From NCBI GenBank assembly GCA_965248265.1, contig CBDFJF010000001.1, forward strand, positions 2,400,001 through 2,464,000: DNA of 64,000 bases, given 5' to 3'. The stretch comes from Candidatus Latescibacterota bacterium. GTDB taxonomy: Bacteria > Latescibacterota > UBA2968 > UBA8231. Positions 2-29,501 of the stretch are shown piece after piece. Within the stretch, counting starts at the first letter, position 1. The number at the start of each line of letters is the position of its first letter. The notes under the pieces are model-generated. The model had not been told where the DNA came from and did no database searches. It was given only the letters and a program-made list of their open reading frames with translations. Both the position numbers and the translations under genes were made by a program.

Positions 2-511
2 ATGGCCGCACAGAAGGCTCAAGAGGATGAACTGAGCGAGCGCCTGAGATTCCAGATCATGAATGCCGAGGACATGACCTTTCCGGACGATCATTTCGAC
101 GTCGTCTTCGGCAAGAGCATCCTGCACCACCTGGATCTGGTCCGGGGCCTGCGGGAAATAGCCAGAGTGCTCAAGGTTGGGGGTCGAGCTGTGTTTTTCG
201 AACCCCTCGGACACAATGTTTTGATCAATATCTATCGCAGACTGACTCCGCGGATGCGGACGGAGGACGAACGGCCCTTACGGGTCGAAGACCTCACCGC
301 GTTCGGCGAGTTTTTCTCCGAGATCAAGATCCATCACTTCCACCTGCTCGCATTGCTTGCGATCCCGTTCTGGAATATCCCGGGACTGTTTGGCGTCCTG
401 GTGTCGTTTCTCGACAGGACCGACCGCCTGCTGTTCAAACTGCTTCCGTTTCTGCGAAAACAAGCCTGGATCGTCGTCGTCGAACTGACGGGACCTCGAC
501 CGTCTGATTGA
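2..511 (+). CDS. Class I SAM-dependent methyltransferase (5'-truncated by window edge)
   Basis: Methyltransf_11-like motifs 'NAEDMTFPDDHFDVVFGKSILHHLD...LREIARVLKVGG'. Confidence 0.85.
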   Translation: MAAQKAQEDELSERLRFQIMNAEDMTFPDDHFDVVFGKSILHHLDLVRGLREIARVLKVGGRAVFFEPLGHNVLINIYRRLTPRMRTEDERPLRVEDLTAFGEFFSEIKIHHFHLLALLAIPFWNIPGLFGVLVSFLDRTDRLLFKLLPFLRKQAWIVVVELTGPRPSD

Positions 512-17445: not shown

Positions 17446-18486
17446 CTATTTGGATTGGGATCTGCGCGCGCGCTGATAGATGAATAAGGCAAGTCCGAAC
17501 AGCGAGAGCCCGGCCAGCTGATGCACCAGGGCGGTAGCGATCGGTACCCCCCAGGCAATGGTGGCGATGCCCAGCAAGATCTGGCCGCAACATATGGCCA
17601 CAAACAATCCCGTACAGGCCGGCAGCAGTGATGTTCCTTCGCGGCGTACCTGTCTCCACAGCAGCACTCCAAGGATCAGGATGGCGAAGGCAAACCAGCG
17701 ATGCTCAAAGTGCACGGTCAGTGCGTTCGAGAACAGATTGCTCAACCACGGGCGCAACGCCCAGAGGCCGTCCGGCACCCACTGCCCTCGGATCTGGGGA
17801 AACGTCGCGGACACATATCCGGCCTTGAGTCCAGCCATCAGCCCACCGAGAGCTATCTGCAGGCACACGGCCAGAAGCAGAGCGAAGGACAGCTTCACCG
17901 TTGAGGGAGAAGCTACCGCGGTAGCCGGGGGCAGAGCCTTCATCCCATGGTCAAGCGCGAGCCACAGGCACCCCCCAAGCAGCGCGATAGCCAGCATCAG
18001 ATGTAGGGTCAAGCGGATATGACTGACATGCGGCATGTCAACCAGACCGCTCTGCACCATCAGCCAGCCCATCAGTCCCTGGAAGGCGAAAAGCATACCG
18101 ATGCCCAGGTATGGAGCGGATCGGCGCCACGGAATGGTGCCTCGTACCAGAAACAGCAGCAACGGCAGCGCCACGCCGAGCCCTGCGAGCCGTCCAGCGA
18201 TGCGATGGATGTATTCACGGTAGTAGATGGAGCGGTACTCATCCATCGTCATACCGACGTTAATCTTCTTGTACTCGGGGGTCTTCTGGTAATCACTGAA
18301 CGTCTGGTCCCAGTCGGCCTCGCTCAGAGGCGGTACGACCCCGGTGACGACGTGCCAGTCCACCATCGACAGACCTGACCCCGTCAGACGCACCCAACCG
18401 CCGAGGGCGATCATGCCGACGACGGTGCAGCTGACGAACAGCAGCCATAGGGCCACGGATCGGTTGCGTTCGAATGTGGGTTCCAA
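17446..18486 (-). CDS. ctaA: Heme A synthase (COX15/CtaA type 2)
   Basis: GGWVRLTGSGLSMVDW, EYIHRIAGR, QGLMGWLMVQSGL, HFEHR, VHQ; TTG start tentative. Confidence 0.92.
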   Translation of the reverse strand: MEPTFERNRSVALWLLFVSCTVVGMIALGGWVRLTGSGLSMVDWHVVTGVVPPLSEADWDQTFSDYQKTPEYKKINVGMTMDEYRSIYYREYIHRIAGRLAGLGVALPLLLFLVRGTIPWRRSAPYLGIGMLFAFQGLMGWLMVQSGLVDMPHVSHIRLTLHLMLAIALLGGCLWLALDHGMKALPPATAVASPSTVKLSFALLLAVCLQIALGGLMAGLKAGYVSATFPQIRGQWVPDGLWALRPWLSNLFSNALTVHFEHRWFAFAILILGVLLWRQVRREGTSLLPACTGLFVAICCGQILLGIATIAWGVPIATALVHQLAGLSLFGLALFIYQRARRSQSK

Positions 18487-18661: not shown

Positions 18662-20356
18662 GTGAGCGCAGCGATTTCATCGTCTGAGACTCGCCATTTT
18701 GCGGGCATGGTTGTTGTTGCGGCACTCTTGTTTTGTTTGTCTCTGGGCCACCGAGCCGTGGCCGATGCGAGACAGGTGGACCAGGAACGGGTCGAGCAGG
18801 TCGAAGACTGGACTGAGTCCCTGGCCAACCAGCTGCATGATCTTTCCCTCGCCGTGCGAAACCGTAATGCCGCGGCGCTGGCCGGCCATTTCAGCGAGAA
18901 CCTCACAGCGACCCCCTGGCCGTCGGTTGGAGGAAGCCGCGTGCCGGCGATCAAGTGGATCGCGCAAGTCGATTCGCCCTGGCCCCGGGAAGTCACGGGT
19001 ACCGACGGCTTCCTCAACAGCTGGCATGTCTACCTCGACGGACTCGGGGGGATCGAGGACGTCCGTTTCCAGGTCAAGCAGGCCCATTTCCAACCTGGGT
19101 TGGAGGTCCGTGCCGATGCTTCCATCTATTTCTCCATCGTCGGTCGCACCGATGACGGCGAGCGCATCTGGATTGAAGCCAAAGCGCACCTGAACGCCGT
19201 CCTCCCAGAGGACAACTGGTCGATAGAGGAGTTCACCTTCTCATCCTTCCACGCCCGCGTGGCATTGACCGACTTGTTCAGTGAAGTGTCCGTACCCGCG
19301 GGTGTCTACCATGAATTGCCGCTGTTCGGCTCTGCTGGCAATCCCGGTTTCGTCGCCCATGGCATAGCCGTCGCCGACGTCGACGGTGACGGCTTGCTGG
19401 ACGCCTTCACCACCAGCCAGGGGCAGAACTTCCTCTACATGAATCTGGGTGACGGTCGTTTTGAGAATCGCGCCCGCGCCGTCGGCCTCGCCATCACCCT
19501 CAACGCCTCCGGAGCGTTGTTCGTCGATCACGACAACGACGGTGACAGCGATCTGTTCCTGGCTGCACCGGGAGACCAGATGCTGTTCGAGAATAGGCTG
19601 GTACCGGACGGCGCGCTCGGCTTCGTCGATGCCTCGGCCAAGGCCGGCGTCGACCTGCCAGCACAGGGATTCAGCGCCAGTGCCGCGGACATCAACGGCG
19701 ACGGCTACCCTGACATTCATGTGGCCTCCTACAATCGCTATGGTCGCGTCATGCCCAACTCCTGGTCGCGGGCCACCAACGGCACACCCAATCTGCTGTT
19801 CGTCAATCGCGGCGATGGTAGCTTCACTGAGCAAGGCGCCGCCTGGGGAGTGGCGGATCGCCGTTGGTCCTACGCCGCCCACTTCGTCGACCTCAACCAG
19901 GACGGCCGTCAGGATCTCTACCTGGCCAACGACTTTGGCGAGAACGCCCTCTACCTCAACCGAGGAGATCACTTCGAGGATGCCGCCACCGCCGCCGGCA
20001 TGCTGGATCCTGGCAACGGCATGGGTGTCTCCGTTGGCGATTTTGACAACGACGGACTACTGGACCTGCACGTGACCAACATGTCGTCGACAGCCGGCAA
20101 CCGGATCCTCAAACGCTTGTTCCCAGACCGCGCCGTTCAACTCGATCAGACTCGTGTCCTCAACAAGCTGGCTGCCGGCAACAGTGTCTTTCGCAATCTG
20201 GGTGGGGGTCACTTTGAGGATGTGAGCGCCGACCTGGGGCCGTTCTCGGGCGGTTGGGCCTGGGGCGGGGGCTTCGTCGACTTCGACAATGACGGCTGGC
20301 TGGACATTCACAGTCCCAACGGCTTCGTCTCGGGTAAATCGCTCAAGGACACGTGA
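18662..20356 (+). CDS. Secreted FG-GAP/VCBS (CRTAC1-like) beta-propeller protein; probably the N-terminal part of one 930-aa protein (18662-21454) read through TGA
   Basis: Signal-like N-terminus, NTF2-like segment, repeated D-x-[DN]-x-DG-x-x-D motifs; stops mid-propeller at TGA 20354-20356. Confidence 0.85.
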   Translation: MSAAISSSETRHFAGMVVVAALLFCLSLGHRAVADARQVDQERVEQVEDWTESLANQLHDLSLAVRNRNAAALAGHFSENLTATPWPSVGGSRVPAIKWIAQVDSPWPREVTGTDGFLNSWHVYLDGLGGIEDVRFQVKQAHFQPGLEVRADASIYFSIVGRTDDGERIWIEAKAHLNAVLPEDNWSIEEFTFSSFHARVALTDLFSEVSVPAGVYHELPLFGSAGNPGFVAHGIAVADVDGDGLLDAFTTSQGQNFLYMNLGDGRFENRARAVGLAITLNASGALFVDHDNDGDSDLFLAAPGDQMLFENRLVPDGALGFVDASAKAGVDLPAQGFSASAADINGDGYPDIHVASYNRYGRVMPNSWSRATNGTPNLLFVNRGDGSFTEQGAAWGVADRRWSYAAHFVDLNQDGRQDLYLANDFGENALYLNRGDHFEDAATAAGMLDPGNGMGVSVGDFDNDGLLDLHVTNMSSTAGNRILKRLFPDRAVQLDQTRVLNKLAAGNSVFRNLGGGHFEDVSADLGPFSGGWAWGGGFVDFDNDGWLDIHSPNGFVSGKSLKDT

Positions 20357-20390
20357 AGCCTGTTCTGGCGCCACGTGCTGGCGTCGTCAG
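20357..20390 (+). promoter_or_regulatory. Candidate bacterial SECIS element
   Basis: Stem GGCGCCA(20367-73)/TGGCGTC(20379-85); loop CGTGC starts after a 17-nt spacer from TGA, with G at loop position 2 followed by T; lower pairing CTG/CAG. Confidence 0.7.
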
Positions 20391-21454
20391 TTGAACTGGA
20401 AGCTGCCGGCAACCCGGAGTACCAGAATGACCACATGGCCAGGATCCTGGAGGATGGCTTCTCGTTCAGCGGGTTCGAACGAGACAAGCTCTATCTCAAC
20501 GACCGTGGCAACCGGTTCGTCGACATCTCAGGCCTTTCTGGGGTAGACGCGGTTAGCGACGGGCGCGGCGCGGCCTATGCTGATTTCGACAACGACGGCG
20601 ACAGCGACATCTTCCTGACCAGCCTGCAGGGACAGGCCCACCATCTGTTCCGCAACGATGTCGGTCAGCACCGTGGTTTCCTGCGGGTCACCCTGGACGG
20701 TCGCGACAGCGGGCACGACGCCTATGGTGCGCAGGTGCGGGTAAAGACTTCACAGGGAGTGCTCGCACGCATCAAGGCCGGCGGCAGTGGCTTCGTCTCG
20801 CAGAGCGATCCGAGATTGCTGTTCGGTCTCGGCGATGACGAGAGCGCCCAGTGGCTGGAGGTGCACTGGCCATCCGGCCTCACGCAACGATTCGGAGCGG
20901 TTGCGGCCGGTTCGTCGGTTCTGGTCCGAGAAGGCGCCGCACTCGAATACCTGCAGGAGCGCCGTTTTTCGCTGCCCGACCCGCTGGCTGCGGATGCGCT
21001 GGTTCATCAGGCTCTCGGACCACAACCTGGGGAACCGTTCCCGTCACTGACGCTCACCGACCTGCAGGGCACCAAGCTGGAATTGAGCGACCTGTCCCCT
21101 TCCTCCGGCCGGCCCCTCGTCGTCAACCTGTGGGCGACATGGTGTGTCCCCTGCCGTGTAGAGATGCCGCAGTTGGAGAAGCTCTACCCCAAGCTACAGG
21201 CCGCCGGGGTGGACCTGATCGGCATCAGCGTCGATTTCGCAGAAACTCGACGCAAGATCCCGTCTTATCTGAAGCGAATCGGCATCTCCTACCCCTCCTA
21301 TACCACCGACGAGAGCGGCCTCGAGCTGCTTTACTCTGGTGATCGACTGGTCGTTCCCATCACCTTCATACTCGATTCAGATTTTCGCGTTGACGAAATT
21401 CTAAGTGGCTGGAACGCTAAATCCGAAGCCCGCCTCCACGGCTTGCTCGAATAG
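20357..21454 (+). CDS. ASPIC/UnbV domain plus TlpA-like thioredoxin; in-frame continuation of the upstream ORF
   Basis: Same frame as the upstream ORF; SFSGFERD, DFDNDGDSD, GSGFVSQSDPRLLFGLG, VHWPSG, NLWATWCVPC; no RBS or signal peptide at GTG 20375. Confidence 0.85.
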   Translation, partial: SLFWRHVLASSVELEAAGNPEYQNDHMARILEDGFSFSGFERDKLYLNDRGNRFVDISGLSGVDAVSDGRGAAYADFDNDGDSDIFLTSLQGQAHHLFRNDVGQHRGFLRVTLDGRDSGHDAYGAQVRVKTSQGVLARIKAGGSGFVSQSDPRLLFGLGDDESAQWLEVHWPSGLTQRFGAVAAGSSVLVREGAALEYLQERRFSLPDPLAADALVHQALGPQPGEPFPSLTLTDLQGTKLELSDLSPSSGRPLVVNLWATWCVPCRVEMPQLEKLYPKLQAAGVDLIGISVDFAETRRKIPSYLKRIGISYPSYTTDESGLELLYSGDRLVVPITFILDSDFRVDEILSGWNAKSEARLHGLLE

Positions 21455-27905: not shown

Positions 27906-28481
27906 ATGCAGACCCGGAAACTGGGCGACACCAGCGTCGAAGTTTCGATCGTCGGAATCGGCGGCTGGCAGATGGGAGGTCCGGACACCCCGGACGGCAA
28001 CGGGCACAGCGAGGCCGTTATCGGACGAGCTATGGTGGGCCGGCGCGACCGCTGGGTCATCGCTACTAAGGGAGGCCGAGTCAAGAATCCGGAGAAACGG
28101 GGCGAGTACAAGGATTACTCCGCTTCCCACATCCGCGATGCTTGTGAGGCAAGCCTCGGACGGCTCGGCACCGACTACATCGATTTCTATCAACTACATG
28201 GTGATCTCCCCGACGAGGCCCTGGTTGAGGAGCATGCTGGGGGTCTGAATCTCTCCTTTCTATGGGAGGGCACGGGTAGGACACCGGCACAGGCTGCGCT
28301 GCGTTTCGTTGTGGACCAACCCGGCGTGACGGCTGCCATTCCCGGGACCAAGAAGATGGAGCATCTGGAAGACAACGTCGGTGCCACCGATGTCGCCCCG
28401 CTGACAGCAGAAGAGCTGCAGCGCGTGGAGGAAGTTGCCACCGCATTGGCTGAGAAACGCACTCACCAGCAGCGCCGCTAG
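27906..28481 (+). pseudogene. Aldo/keto reductase with two in-frame internal deletions
   Basis: 191 aa; AKR N- and C-termini intact, but the DTAxxYG catalytic segment and the central G-V-S/QxxYN region are missing; GGAGG RBS. Confidence 0.65.
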
Positions 28482-28535
28482 TTGATTGTTGTTTTCAACC
28501 TGACATGCCGCTTTAACAATATCGAAAGGCAGATC

Positions 28536-29501
28536 ATGAGTTCGATCTTGGAGCAACGTCCCTTCGGTAACACCGACTCCACGACCACAGCTCTCGGCCT
28601 GGGATGCGGCCACATCGCCAAGCACTCCTTCGCCACCGGCGTCGACACCATTCACCGGGCTCTCGAGCTCGGTGTGCGCTATTTCGATACGGCACCGTTC
28701 TACGGACGTGGGATGTCACAGGCCGTGCTCGGAGAGGCATTGCAGAATCGCACAGAAGAGTATTTGCTGGCAACGAAAGTGGGACGACTGCGCACACCAA
28801 AGCATTTCCGTTCGGCCGACGCGATACGGGCACAGCTGGACGAAAACCTGCGGCTGCTGCGTCGTCCAGATGTCGATGTGCTCCAAATTCACGAAGCGGA
28901 TTGGCATGCGTGGTGGTCCGACGTTCCCCGTCAAGACGAGAGCAGCAACGTCGACCACGCCATAGACTATGAATTCGATGAAGCCCCGGTTATGCGTGTG
29001 CTGCGCGAAGCCAGAGAGCAGGGCGTCTGCAAGGCGATTGGCGTCACCGGCAATTCCGCTGCCGATACCGCGTTCGTACTGCGCCATGTCGACGTCGACA
29101 CCTACCTGCTCGCTTTCAACTACAACCCCGTGGAGCGTGAGGCCCGCACCGAGTCATTCCCCCTGGCACGAGAGAAAGGCGTGGCGATGATTCTGGGAGG
29201 GGTGCTGACCCGAGGACAGCTCACTGCAAAGAGCGATGAGCTGTTCGAGTCGCCGCCCAAGTGGATGACGTCGCAAATCAGCGAGAGCCTGCGGGTCCTT
29301 TACAAGATCCACGACGACACCGGCATCTCGTTGCCGGCACTGGCGCTGAGATTCGTCCTTGCGGATCCAAGTGTCACCGTCGCCCTCATCGGCGCCGCCA
29401 CGCCTGCGGAAATCGAAGAGAACGTCGAGGCAGCTAGTGCAGGACCGCTGCCCGCAGATATTCATCAAGCTGTGGAAGACGTGGTGAAGGAGCCCGGTTA
29501 G
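28536..29501 (+). CDS. Aldo/keto reductase
   Basis: LGLGC, YFDTAPFYG, ATKVG, VLQIHE, IGVTG, ALRFVL. Confidence 0.92.
   Translation: MSSILEQRPFGNTDSTTTALGLGCGHIAKHSFATGVDTIHRALELGVRYFDTAPFYGRGMSQAVLGEALQNRTEEYLLATKVGRLRTPKHFRSADAIRAQLDENLRLLRRPDVDVLQIHEADWHAWWSDVPRQDESSNVDHAIDYEFDEAPVMRVLREAREQGVCKAIGVTGNSAADTAFVLRHVDVDTYLLAFNYNPVEREARTESFPLAREKGVAMILGGVLTRGQLTAKSDELFESPPKWMTSQISESLRVLYKIHDDTGISLPALALRFVLADPSVTVALIGAATPAEIEENVEAASAGPLPADIHQAVEDVVKEPG

Follow-up and report, generated by a model that had tools for sequence, protein, structure and literature searches.

The window analysed here, a stretch of 64,000 nucleotides from the genome of a Candidatus Latescibacterota bacterium, contains a GTG-started open reading frame (18662..20356) that encodes 564 amino acids and stops at the TGA codon 20354-20356. 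The same frame stays open past this TGA up to the TAG at 21452-21454, giving 930 residues if the TGA is read through; the recoded codon would be position 565, with the junction ...SGKSLKDT-U-SLFWRHVLAS.... Re-reading of the sequence reproduced the frame, the stop and the 930 codons given in the original prediction, with one exception, the start: in place of GTG 18662, ATG 18707 (M16) is the likelier start of the read-through gene. The database gene call on this contig (P0125, 549 aa) begins at M16 and ends at DT. The features of the locus are the following.

18662..21454, + strand: whole read-through gene, 930 codons from GTG 18662, with one in-frame TGA and the terminator TAG at 21452-54
18707..18763, + strand: signal-peptide-like N-terminus MVVVAALLFCLSLGHRAVA, read off the sequence; the model has a helix at 11-27, with low pLDDT
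18779..19291, + strand: long helix and NTF2-like (SnoaL / ketosteroid-isomerase-like) cone domain, aa 40-210
19304..20656, + strand: seven-blade FG-GAP beta-propeller with DxDxDG loops, aa 215-665, from Pfam, the model and Foldseek
20354..20356, + strand: UGA, probable selenocysteine codon (U565), from the conserved column and the Sec machinery
20354..20452, + strand: helical hairpin inserted in the propeller, helices 565-576 and 585-597, from DSSP on the AlphaFold2 model
20367..20385, + strand: probable SECIS hairpin, 7-bp stem GGCGCCA/TGGCGTC with loop CGUGC, from comparison of relatives
20669..20956, + strand: UnbV_ASPIC beta-sandwich domain (Pfam PF07593, 2.8e-17, aa 687-752; match to 9etn_A)
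21014..21451, + strand: TlpA/ResA-like thioredoxin-fold domain (Pfam AhpC-TSA/Redoxin, aa 788-907)
21140-21154, + strand: WCVPC active-site motif (C828, C831) within the TlpA/ResA-like domain

The domains anticipated across the read-through, i.e., FG-GAP repeats, an ASPIC/UnbV domain and a WCVPC thioredoxin domain, were all recovered by Pfam. The propeller matches FG-GAP_3 (1.4e-41, in six stretches) and FG-GAP (2.6e-18), and the C-terminal domain matches ResA (4nmu_A, 1.1e-19; Foldseek TMt about 0.8). The NTF2-like domain was modelled with a pLDDT of 93.4, and its Foldseek matches in the PDB are LinA, ketosteroid isomerase and SnoaL-like proteins (E ~1e-6 to 1e-4, TMt 0.5-0.7). In the AlphaFold2 model (mean pLDDT 90.7, pTM 0.88), DSSP assigns U565 as residue 1 of the first inserted helix. 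The signal-like N-terminus suggests that the read-through protein is exported.

TGA is the commonest ordinary stop in the window's genome, where 844 of the 1477 open frames that are 500 codons or longer end in it; the genome is not globally recoded, as had been stated. All database gene calls examined stop at the TGA. Within the best 120 matches, 87 of 87 database proteins of 500-640 aa end in ...K[ST][LM]xDT, which indicates that current annotation splits the gene, and separate database proteins of 263-367 aa start 7-9 residues past the Sec site, in line with the expectation that the gene would normally be annotated as two. This two-piece annotation, together with the GTG available at 20375, seven codons past the TGA, speaks for a reading in which the TGA is a true terminator, either within a conserved gene pair or to yield a propeller truncated on purpose, and that GTG starts a separate translation of the downstream half. 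We consider this very unlikely. The break lies inside the propeller, between blades 6 and 7 (Pfam and model), and the downstream piece lacks a signal peptide, yet has a TlpA domain of the extracytoplasmic type. SelB-dependent decoding is inefficient, and therefore a truncated product is probably made as well.

Conservation of the TGA was assessed in a six-frame search of 40 relatives and the window's own genome, in which TGA was not a search criterion. Full-length homologues with one in-frame TGA were found in 10 genomes, and the window's own genome also holds a 77%-identical paralogue with an in-frame TGA. The TGA falls in one alignment column in all 11 intact copies, eight of them close (58-100% identity) and three distant (31-40%). 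A metagenome scan seeded with a Cys form, which likewise did not ask for TGA, yielded TGA at the same column in 10 of the 10 closest loci. Relatives thus keep the TGA within the motif D-T-U-S-x-[FY]-W-R, a check that the original prediction had proposed, and neither TAA nor TAG occurs at the Sec column among these 21 copies, which argues against a terminator. In Acidobacteriota, Latescibacterota and Planctomycetota, a DNA pattern for the site matched at least 114 species genomes; of the 80 loci listed, 79 are true members, with the family peptide on both sides of the TGA, and the frame 3' of the TGA is open for ~360-400 codons. Each of the 49 complete genes has this TGA as its only in-frame one and keeps the frame across it, which is again at odds with a terminator.

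A nonsense mutation, a pseudogene or a sequencing error was also considered, given a bare stop codon and one related copy (L085) that looks broken; with the same TGA in more than 100 independent assemblies and a downstream frame that is open and conserved, this explanation was rejected as having almost no probability. The read check at 20354 points the same way: contigs from public runs span and carry the TGA, with no other letter at 20354-56 among the differences listed. It should be noted that three of the 79 loci (L064, L085 and L118) have a stop less than 100 codons upstream of the TGA, and L085 has a further stop 59 codons downstream; because of these extra stops, the three look broken or mis-assembled. 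L085 is the same as G012 and L032, and this copy appears to be broken by frameshifts.

The hairpin described in the original prediction is present at 20367-85. It consists of the 5' arm GGCGCCA (20367-20373), the loop CGTGC (20374-20378) and the 3' arm TGGCGTC (20379-20385), i.e., seven pairs including one G-U, and starts 11 nt past the TGA, with a TGA-to-loop spacer of 17 nt. The general SECIS model of bSECISearch reportedly has the loop 16-37 nt from the UGA and a G in the first loop positions. The window's own 81-nt fold is not separable from shuffles by folding energy (z = -1.16), and the minimum-energy folds of its 81-nt and 60-nt segments do not contain the hairpin; in a 45-nt context, the hairpin appears in the folds of 62 of 82 sequences. 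Its significance therefore comes from the comparison of relatives and not from the window's own folding energy.

Among 82 distinct sequences, the stem pair 18-28 is CG in 40, UA in 33, GU in 8 and other in 1. At this pair, 41 cells are changed on both sides versus 12.6 in shuffles, and none of 500 shuffles reaches 41, figures that are not probabilities, as the sequences are related; 87.8% of cells are paired, and sliding the partner column brings this down to 27-73%. Column 18 falls on the third, synonymous position of an Arg codon, and column 28 on the first position of an Ala, Thr or Ser codon. In the main clade only this one stem pair covaries, and the count of pairs with a change on both sides is 1, a value also reached by 473 of 500 shuffles. 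The remaining stem bases are also constrained by the conserved peptide W-R-[HQ]-V-[VL]. In a codon test of 120 conserved four-fold-degenerate columns in 49 genes (median pairwise identity 0.51), the only column with a single codon was Val +8, with GTG in 45 of 45 and its wobble base in the stem; the third base of the neighbouring Val +7, which lies in the loop, is free (GTG 11, GTT 11, GTC 27). In the three distant Sec forms, hairpins of other sequence occupy roughly this position (GCGCAC-GGUC-GUGCGC and GGCUGU-CGUGUC-ACAGCC). The covarying pair and the fixed Val +8 codon bear out the suggested conservation of the hairpin, and these sequence comparisons indicate that it is under selection at the RNA level. 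A covarying hairpin with a fixed wobble base exactly at the place expected of a SECIS is difficult to reconcile with a true terminator.

The Sec genes selA, selB, selC and selD, for which a look-up had been proposed, are all present in the window's genome: SelA (472 and 561 bits), SelB (333 bits), SelD (352 bits), whose gene has its own TGA, and a tRNA-Sec with the anticodon UCA (68.9 bits). SelA was found in 10 of 10 related genomes with the TGA form and in 39 of 40 carrier genomes sampled from 79, which again disfavours a terminator; the one sampled carrier genome in which it was not found is G077. Aragorn also reported, elsewhere in the window's genome, one odd tRNA with a four-base anticodon. 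Such a tRNA could be cited for read-through of the UGA without selenium, by a near-cognate Trp or Cys tRNA or another suppressor, the hairpin being a mere stimulator, and the present sequence analyses do not distinguish which amino acid is inserted. We regard this as extremely improbable, because the Sec pathway is complete in the window's genome and occurs together with the gene, the hairpin agrees with the SECIS of that genome's own selD in spacing and in its G-U-containing loop, and TGA otherwise serves there as a stop.

The conserved TGA, the covarying hairpin and the Sec machinery all favour Sec at codon 565, as originally predicted. We conclude that TGA 20354-56 is, with high probability, a Sec codon, that the hairpin is its SECIS, and that the product is an exported CRTAC1-like protein of 915-930 aa. 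The hairpin at 20367-85 would recruit SelB carrying Sec-tRNA(Sec), and this recruitment would result in one protein of 915-930 aa rather than two, with the predicted order signal peptide, NTF2-like domain, seven-blade FG-GAP propeller, UnbV_ASPIC sandwich and TlpA-like thioredoxin domain.

The role of the Sec can be considered in the light of the cysteines of the family. All 48 complete Sec-form genes have a C-x-[PS]-C thioredoxin-like domain at the C-terminal end, and in 27 of them these cysteines are the only Cys in the ~910 residues read. Of the distant Sec forms, L033 also has WCPSC, while L034 and L035 are devoid of the thioredoxin domain and read U-S-C and U-A-C. In a quick tree, the backbone is occupied by Sec+Trx forms, and the Trx domain is missing as well from most branches without Sec (the R, S, C, D and E clades). 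Homologues with Cys or Ser at the site, the existence of which had been suggested as a check, do occur: the Cys forms are P0002, P0006, P0011, P0208 and P0222, a small minority of the Sec-less relatives, and three of these five have the CxxC domain. Most Sec-less relatives have S, R, E, D, A, N, L, V or Q at this position. For a catalytic Sec, such a scarcity of Cys would be atypical, which makes a redox centre less likely. The CxxC is kept with neither Sec nor Cys at the site in P0004 (V), P0005 (S), P0007 (L), P0165 (A), P0166 (Q) and P0269 (N).

These substitutions bear on another reading, in which the Sec is real, although it serves as a ligand of a metal or metalloid (e.g., Cu, Hg or As) instead of a redox catalyst, and the CxxC acts independently on other substrates. 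The non-Cys residues and the persistence of CxxC domains in forms without Sec or Cys are compatible with such a ligand, as are the conserved W, R and H/Q among the residues 3' of the Sec, and several families in Table 1 of a 2026 review are metal-binding selenoproteins. However, the U-x-C motif in both forms without the Trx domain, the retention of the CxxC domain in every complete Sec form and its loss in most Sec-less branches are not what a metal ligand would suggest. Moreover, no gene family is common to more than 5 of 103 flanking ORFs, and no metal-handling genes recur beside the gene. On balance, we consider a metal ligand unlikely.

As for the redox reading, the chances are roughly even that the selenol, at the N-terminus of the helix, works as a redox centre and is re-reduced by the fused CxxC domain, a cycling already raised in the original prediction. 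The CxxC domain of all complete Sec forms, the U-x-C of the two forms without it and its joint absence from most Sec-less branches favour such cycling; the Sec-less forms that keep a CxxC domain and the variable, mostly non-Cys residue at the site speak against it. The selenol would act on a propeller-bound ligand, reducing, e.g., a peroxide, sulfoxide or disulfide there, and the CxxC domain would restore it with electrons taken, in the manner of TlpA and ResA proteins, from a membrane reductant of the CcdA/DsbD type; in the U-x-C relatives without the Trx domain, the cysteine two residues past the Sec may act as the resolving residue. The complete proposal, a self-contained extracytoplasmic selenoenzyme of a previously undescribed type with an N-cap selenol in the insert of a CRTAC1-type propeller and a TlpA-like reductase in the same chain, of a single Sec+Trx origin followed by repeated joint loss, is tentative, and we rate its chances as somewhat below even.

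If the selenocysteine assignment is true, a widespread, systematically mis-annotated family, present in at least 114 species-level genomes, is added to the prokaryotic selenoproteome. Carriers of the Sec+Trx form are frequent among Acidobacteriota, Latescibacterota and Planctomycetota from soil and sea. Soils and sediments are dominated by these phyla, and few studies have dealt with selenium use there. Since the Sec-less relatives mostly have no Cys at the site, searches by homology to Cys would tend to miss the family, which thus exposes a blind spot of current selenoprotein finders; annotation pipelines could recover the complete gene with a simple model that combines D-T-U-S-x-[FY]-W-R and the hairpin. 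The Sec would lie outside any thioredoxin fold, in a predicted exported beta-propeller. In vertebrates, the counterpart of this bacterial scaffold is CRTAC1, which has no known molecular function; a redox site on the scaffold together with a built-in reductase domain suggests testable chemistry. A self-contained selenoenzyme, if true, would open the first biochemical route to the ligands or substrates of CRTAC1-family propellers.

Table 1 of the 2026 review lists 119 prokaryotic selenoprotein families and subfamilies, none of them an FG-GAP, UnbV_ASPIC or CRTAC1 entry, and none of the NCBIfam selenoprotein models reaches its cut-off on the read-through protein; the protein was rightly placed outside the classic families. 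Compared by the names in that table, the TonB-dependent receptor of the FCYXU type and the MtrB/PioB-family beta-barrel also have Sec in an envelope protein outside a thioredoxin fold, but they have other folds and motifs, and neither is FG-GAP, UnbV_ASPIC or CRTAC1. The thioredoxin-fold selenoproteins share the fold and the W-C-x-P-C motif with the C-terminal domain described here; in those proteins the Sec is in the thioredoxin active site, whereas the domain described here has an ordinary CxxC as its active site, with the Sec 263 residues upstream in another domain. The C-terminal domain has the TlpA/ResA-type fold and the CxxC, and the N-terminal signal-like peptide suggests an extracytoplasmic location. 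Its NCBIfam scores (TlpA, 70.5 versus a cut-off of 230; ResA, 71.9 versus 170) are far below the cut-offs, indicating a TlpA-like domain and not a TlpA or ResA orthologue; there is also a weak match to NF041054 (31.7 bits).

The hairpin resembles the E. coli fdhF-type SECIS in starting 11 nt after the UGA and in having the loop G-U ~17-20 nt after it, and its spacing is the same as that in selD of the window's genome (TCG-U-AAK), with a stem at +14..19 and a GGUC loop at +20..23. Decoding appears to follow the ordinary bacterial SECIS mechanism, and nothing unusual was noticed.

The closest known system is CRTAC1 (cartilage acidic protein 1, crystal structure 9etn), which has the same FG-GAP beta-propeller followed by an UnbV_ASPIC sandwich. 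Murine CRTAC1 (9etn_A) matches with a Foldseek E of 2.7e-30 and a TMt of 0.74 (phmmer, 2.2e-19), FG-GAP and UnbV_ASPIC score above the Pfam gathering scores, and relatives in the database carry the name 'CRTAC1 family protein' from their sources; these results place the protein in the CRTAC1-like group. We know of no enzymatic function in the CRTAC1 family. No selenocysteine has been described in CRTAC1 or bacterial ASPIC-UnbV proteins, whereas the present subfamily has, beyond the CRTAC1 core, an N-terminal NTF2-like domain, a probable Sec at the start of the inserted helix and a C-terminal TlpA-like domain.

The open reading frame that begins with GTG at 18662 ends at the TGA codon at 20354-56, and the same frame continues to a TAG at 21452-54, as the original prediction had described it. 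Reading through the TGA gives a protein of 930 residues, in which the recoded codon is number 565 (U565) in the context ...SGKSLKDT-U-SLFWRHVLAS.... The ATG at 18707 is a likelier start than the GTG; the public gene call on this contig (P0125, 549 aa) starts at this ATG, and its last residues are ...DT. The proposed hairpin was found in place, with a 17-nt spacer from the TGA to the loop, and Pfam applied to the read-through protein bore out the suggested fusion of FG-GAP, ASPIC-UnbV and WCVPC thioredoxin parts. The elements of the gene and its product are as follows.

18662-20356, forward strand: GTG-started open reading frame, closed by the TGA
20367-73 and 20379-85, forward strand: hairpin arms GGCGCCA and TGGCGTC, with the loop CGTGC
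N-terminus (AlphaFold2 model): hydrophobic, signal-like helix
After the signal-like helix (separate domain model, pLDDT 93.4): long helix and NTF2-like alpha+beta cone
Read-through protein (Pfam): six FG-GAP_3 stretches
Residues 687-752 (Pfam): UnbV_ASPIC
Residues 788-907 (Pfam): AhpC-TSA/Redoxin
C828 and C831 (read from the sequence): WCVPC motif

We consider it highly likely that the TGA is a genuine selenocysteine (Sec) codon, decoded via the hairpin, and that the gene encodes one exported protein.

The genome that carries the gene (GCA_965248265.1; 7.32 Mb in two contigs, C1 and C2, 59.5% G+C) contains selA, selB, selC and selD. SelA scored 472 bits against PF03841 and 561 bits against TIGR00474, SelB 333 bits (cut-off 242) and SelD 352 bits, and a tRNA-Sec with the anticodon UCA was identified by Aragorn and by Rfam (RF01852, 68.9 bits); the selD gene has one in-frame TGA of its own, in the motif TCG-U-AAK. 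Thus, this genome is able to read UGA as Sec. TGA is also its commonest ordinary stop, closing 844 of the 1477 open frames that are 500 codons or longer; therefore, the genetic code is not globally changed, in agreement with the original prediction. Two other tRNA predictions were obtained in contig C1. A second Rfam tRNA-Sec match (C1:2555848-2555933, minus strand; 47.2 bits against a gathering score of 47) is probably not another selC but a tRNA with a long arm (Ser or Leu); Aragorn reports a single tRNA-SeC. Aragorn also gave a tRNA to which no identity is assigned and whose anticodon has four bases (ttct; C1 complement 1057951-1058029); it may be either a mis-call or a tRNA resembling a frameshift suppressor.

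SelA is frequent across the lineage (35 of 41 genomes, i.e., the 40 nearest and the genome itself). It is present in all ten related genomes with the TGA form, and none of the six genomes without SelA has that form. When 40 of the 79 carrier genomes were sampled, SelA (E below 1e-30) was detected in 39, in 38 of them above the cut-off and in one as a copy truncated at a contig end; in the remaining carrier, G077, the search for SelA found none. An alternative in which the UGA is read through independently of selenium is a poor fit to the data, and we regard it as highly improbable.

Public annotation divides the gene in two, as had been anticipated: among the best 120 matches to residues 470-700, all 87 database proteins with a length of 500-640 aa terminate in ...K[ST][LM]xDT, precisely at the TGA, and three proteins of a representative library (P0192, P0223, P0248; 263-367 aa) are separate entries that begin 7-9 residues past the TGA, in agreement with the GTG at 20375. 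No full-length record of a Sec form, i.e., a copy with the in-frame TGA, occurred among the database matches listed, and none of the NCBIfam models reaches its cut-off on the studied protein. If the TGA were a true terminator, these records would represent a conserved split gene. When the 40 nearest genomes and the genome itself were searched in six frames, with no stop codon required, full-length homologues with exactly one in-frame TGA were recovered from G007, G008, G011, G013, G021 and G024 (58-68% identity); G015, G026 and G030 yielded more distant ones (33-40% identity). A paralogue in the same genome (L159, C2:3041070-3043757, minus strand) is 77% identical and has the TGA in the same column, a hairpin sequence identical to that of the studied gene, and a C-terminal CAPC motif; the genome carries two selenoprotein genes of this propeller family. 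In all 11 aligned intact copies, the TGA falls in one shared column; a further copy (L032, from genome G012) is garbled by frameshifts and was left outside the 11. In nine homologues from a different family of the class, more distant still, this column holds an ordinary residue other than Cys. A metagenome scan seeded with P0011, a form with Cys at the site, returned TGA at that column in the ten closest loci (10 of 10) and otherwise distant paralogues. The copies found without requiring TGA, some of which are close mutual relatives, have TGA in 21 cases of 21, and TAA or TAG in none. The terminator reading is a poor fit to these data and is very unlikely. Other matches with a single TGA, located in the ASPIC region of paralogues (six fetched), were rejected as terminal stops or out-of-frame noise.

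Contigs assembled from public runs span the TGA, and no other letter occurs at 20354-56 among the differences listed; a pseudogene or an error, likewise a poor fit to the data, has a negligible probability. Some of the matching public runs, which are small-share, are labelled marine or seawater, and no habitat is inferred.

A degenerate DNA pattern, G-[KQE]-x-x-x-D-T-TGA-S-x-x-W-R, scanned over one genome per species, matched at least 114 stretches, 80 of which became loci. The family peptide flanks the site on both sides in 79 of 80 loci among the matches listed; L055 lacks it and was discarded as a chance pattern match. The frame past the TGA is open for about 360-400 codons where the contig is long enough. 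Three loci (L064, L085 and L118) have a stop less than 100 codons upstream of the TGA and look broken or mis-assembled. L085, from Candidatus Handelsmanbacteria (the genome also represented by G012 and L032), retains both TGA and hairpin, and has stops 44 codons before and 59 codons after the TGA; it reads as frameshifted, and is either decaying or poorly assembled. Among the matches listed, carriers labelled as Acidobacteriota include Pyrinomonadaceae, Blastocatellia, Vicinamibacteria, Bryobacterales, Terriglobales and others, and the other labelled carriers are Latescibacterota, Planctomycetota including a Brocadiaceae MAG, and a "Handelsmanbacteria" MAG. The studied protein is closest to the copies labelled as Latescibacterota (61% identity to L108) and groups with L108 and L114 on the tree.

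The evidence for a SECIS element comes from comparing relatives. Folding energy alone fails to show it for the window sequence: the 81-nt fold has z = -1.16 and a minimum-energy structure without the hairpin, and 60-nt folds gave a mixed outcome. In a 45-nt context, the four core pairs are present in the minimum-energy fold of 62 of 82 sequences, that of the window included. These 82 distinct sequences, aligned from the TGA, were used to analyze covariation. The seven-pair helix (columns 14-20 with 26-32) has 87.8% of its cells paired, compared to 26.5-73.2% after displacement of the 3' partner by 1-3 columns. The pair 18-28 is CG in 40 sequences, UA in 33, GU in 8 and other in 1. Column 18 falls on the third, synonymous position of an Arg codon (CGC, CGU or CGG), and column 28 on the opening base of the codon three places further along (GCG for Ala, ACG for Thr or UCG for Ser); thus, the coupling of these columns is not attributable to selection at the protein level. 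Cells changed on both sides numbered 41, compared to 12.6 in shuffles, and none of 500 shuffles reached 41; the number of pairs with a change on both sides was 1, which 473 of 500 shuffles reached. It should be noted that the covariation comes from one pair only and that the sequences are akin to one another.

A test independent of pairing was provided by a codon alignment of 49 complete genes, whose pairwise identities range over 0.36-0.95 with a median of 0.51; in this alignment, 120 columns have at least 40 sequences sharing a four-fold-degenerate amino acid. A single codon is used in only one of the 120 columns, the Val eight codons past the TGA (GTG, 45 of 45), the third base of which pairs with C19; the Val before it, with its third base in the loop, varies freely (GTG 11, GTT 11, GTC 27). 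The three distant Sec forms have hairpins of different sequence at nearly the same distance from the TGA, GCGCAC-GGUC-GUGCGC in L033 and GGCUGU-CGUGUC-ACAGCC in L034 and L035. An Rfam search of 20250-20500 with E up to 10 gave no match; Rfam apparently contains no general bacterial SECIS model.

An AlphaFold2 model from a 39-row alignment has a mean pLDDT of 90.7 and a pTM of 0.88. Foldseek matched the NTF2-like cone to SnoaL-like proteins, LinA and ketosteroid isomerase, with E values of about 1e-6 to 1e-4. Among solved structures, murine CRTAC1 is the best match to the FG-GAP propeller and UnbV_ASPIC sandwich (9etn_A, E 2.7e-30, TMt 0.74), and the C-terminal domain has a TlpA/ResA-like thioredoxin fold (4nmu_A, 1.1e-19; TMt about 0.8). 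A two-helix insertion (565-576 and 585-597) is predicted to sit between propeller strands, and Sec is modelled as the first residue of helix 565-576. Thiol oxidoreductases usually have their reactive Cys or Sec at the N-terminus of a helix.

Given Sec, we put at about an even chance a redox role in which the selenol at residue 565 would be the redox center and would be re-reduced by the fused CxxC domain or, in forms devoid of this domain, by a Cys two residues past Sec. Besides one Cys in the signal-like peptide, U565, C828 and C831 are the only Cys or Sec positions in the read-through protein. All 48 complete Sec-form genes of the pattern scan, among the matches listed, combine a single TGA with a C-terminal C-x-[PS]-C, and in 27 of the 48 these two cysteines are the sole Cys in the approximately 910 residues read. 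L033 has a C-terminal WCPSC domain; L034 and L035 have no thioredoxin domain and contain a Cys two residues past Sec instead (U-S-C and U-A-C). Five relatives have Cys at the site, three with the CxxC domain (P0002, P0208, P0222) and two without (P0006, P0011). The 48 pairs of cysteines, the U-x-C motif and the five Cys forms favor the redox role. In most relatives without Sec, the site is occupied by S, R, E, D, A, N, L, V or Q and the S-x-[FY]-W-R-x-V helix that follows is kept, and six forms with neither Sec nor Cys still have the CxxC domain; these varied residues and the retained domain disfavor that role. The other possibility, that Sec is a ligand for a metal or metalloid, is rather unlikely.

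A quick maximum-likelihood tree (SH-aLRT, midpoint root) was built from 13 of the 49 complete Sec forms and 26 database proteins. The Sec forms with the thioredoxin domain are strung along the backbone, and Sec-less groups branch among them, some without the domain (the R clade, the S clade, a C pair with P0021, P0017, P0008, P0003) and others with it (P0002 and the P0004/5/7 clade); the starred branches require at least three changes of the Sec label. For a tree without an outgroup root, the simplest reading would be a single origin of Sec together with the thioredoxin domain, followed by repeated loss of Sec, mostly with the domain.

TlpA proteins assist cytochrome oxidase maturation, and the neighbors in the window are an RND efflux operon and a divergent heme A synthase (COX15/CtaA; 17446-18450, minus strand). 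The latter was rejected as a conserved partner because any given Pfam family is found in at most 5 of the 103 ORFs that flank carrier loci; this adjacency was not observed among the other carriers. The gene neighborhood offers no hint of function. Among these ORFs (loci L045-L124), four encode a vanadium-haloperoxidase-like neighbor (DUF6851 and VCPO_2nd, with PAP2 in three) and five a CRTAC1-like paralogue, often with TPR repeats, too few for conserved partners. Elsewhere in the window, tandem aldo/keto reductase ORFs (27906-29501, forward strand; 191 and 339 aa) share a frame, and were rejected as a Sec site because the intervening stop is TAG; the first matches just part of the family profile and may be a remnant.

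A 2026 review of prokaryotic selenoproteomes, self-styled as the most comprehensive inventory, comprises 119 families and subfamilies (PMC13188914), and its Table 1 has no FG-GAP, UnbV_ASPIC or CRTAC1 entry. The main texts of this review, the deep-Sep paper (PMC12013277), a 2022 review (PMC9312934) and the GOS survey (PMC2398784) contain no mention of FG-GAP, VCBS, ASPIC, CRTAC, cartilage, propeller or integrin. Full-text literature searches yielded no paper tying Sec to this family, which may be listed as "hypothetical protein" in supplements such as Table S2 of the deep-Sep paper or those of older metagenome surveys. In the selD gene of the same genome (L022, C2:1010876-1011799, forward strand), itself a selenoprotein gene, the SECIS stem lies at +14..19 after the TGA and the GGUC loop at +20..23, compared to a stem at +13..19 and a loop at +20..24 in the studied gene. 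The decoding mechanism is ordinary; the novelty lies in the family, its structural setting and its abundance.
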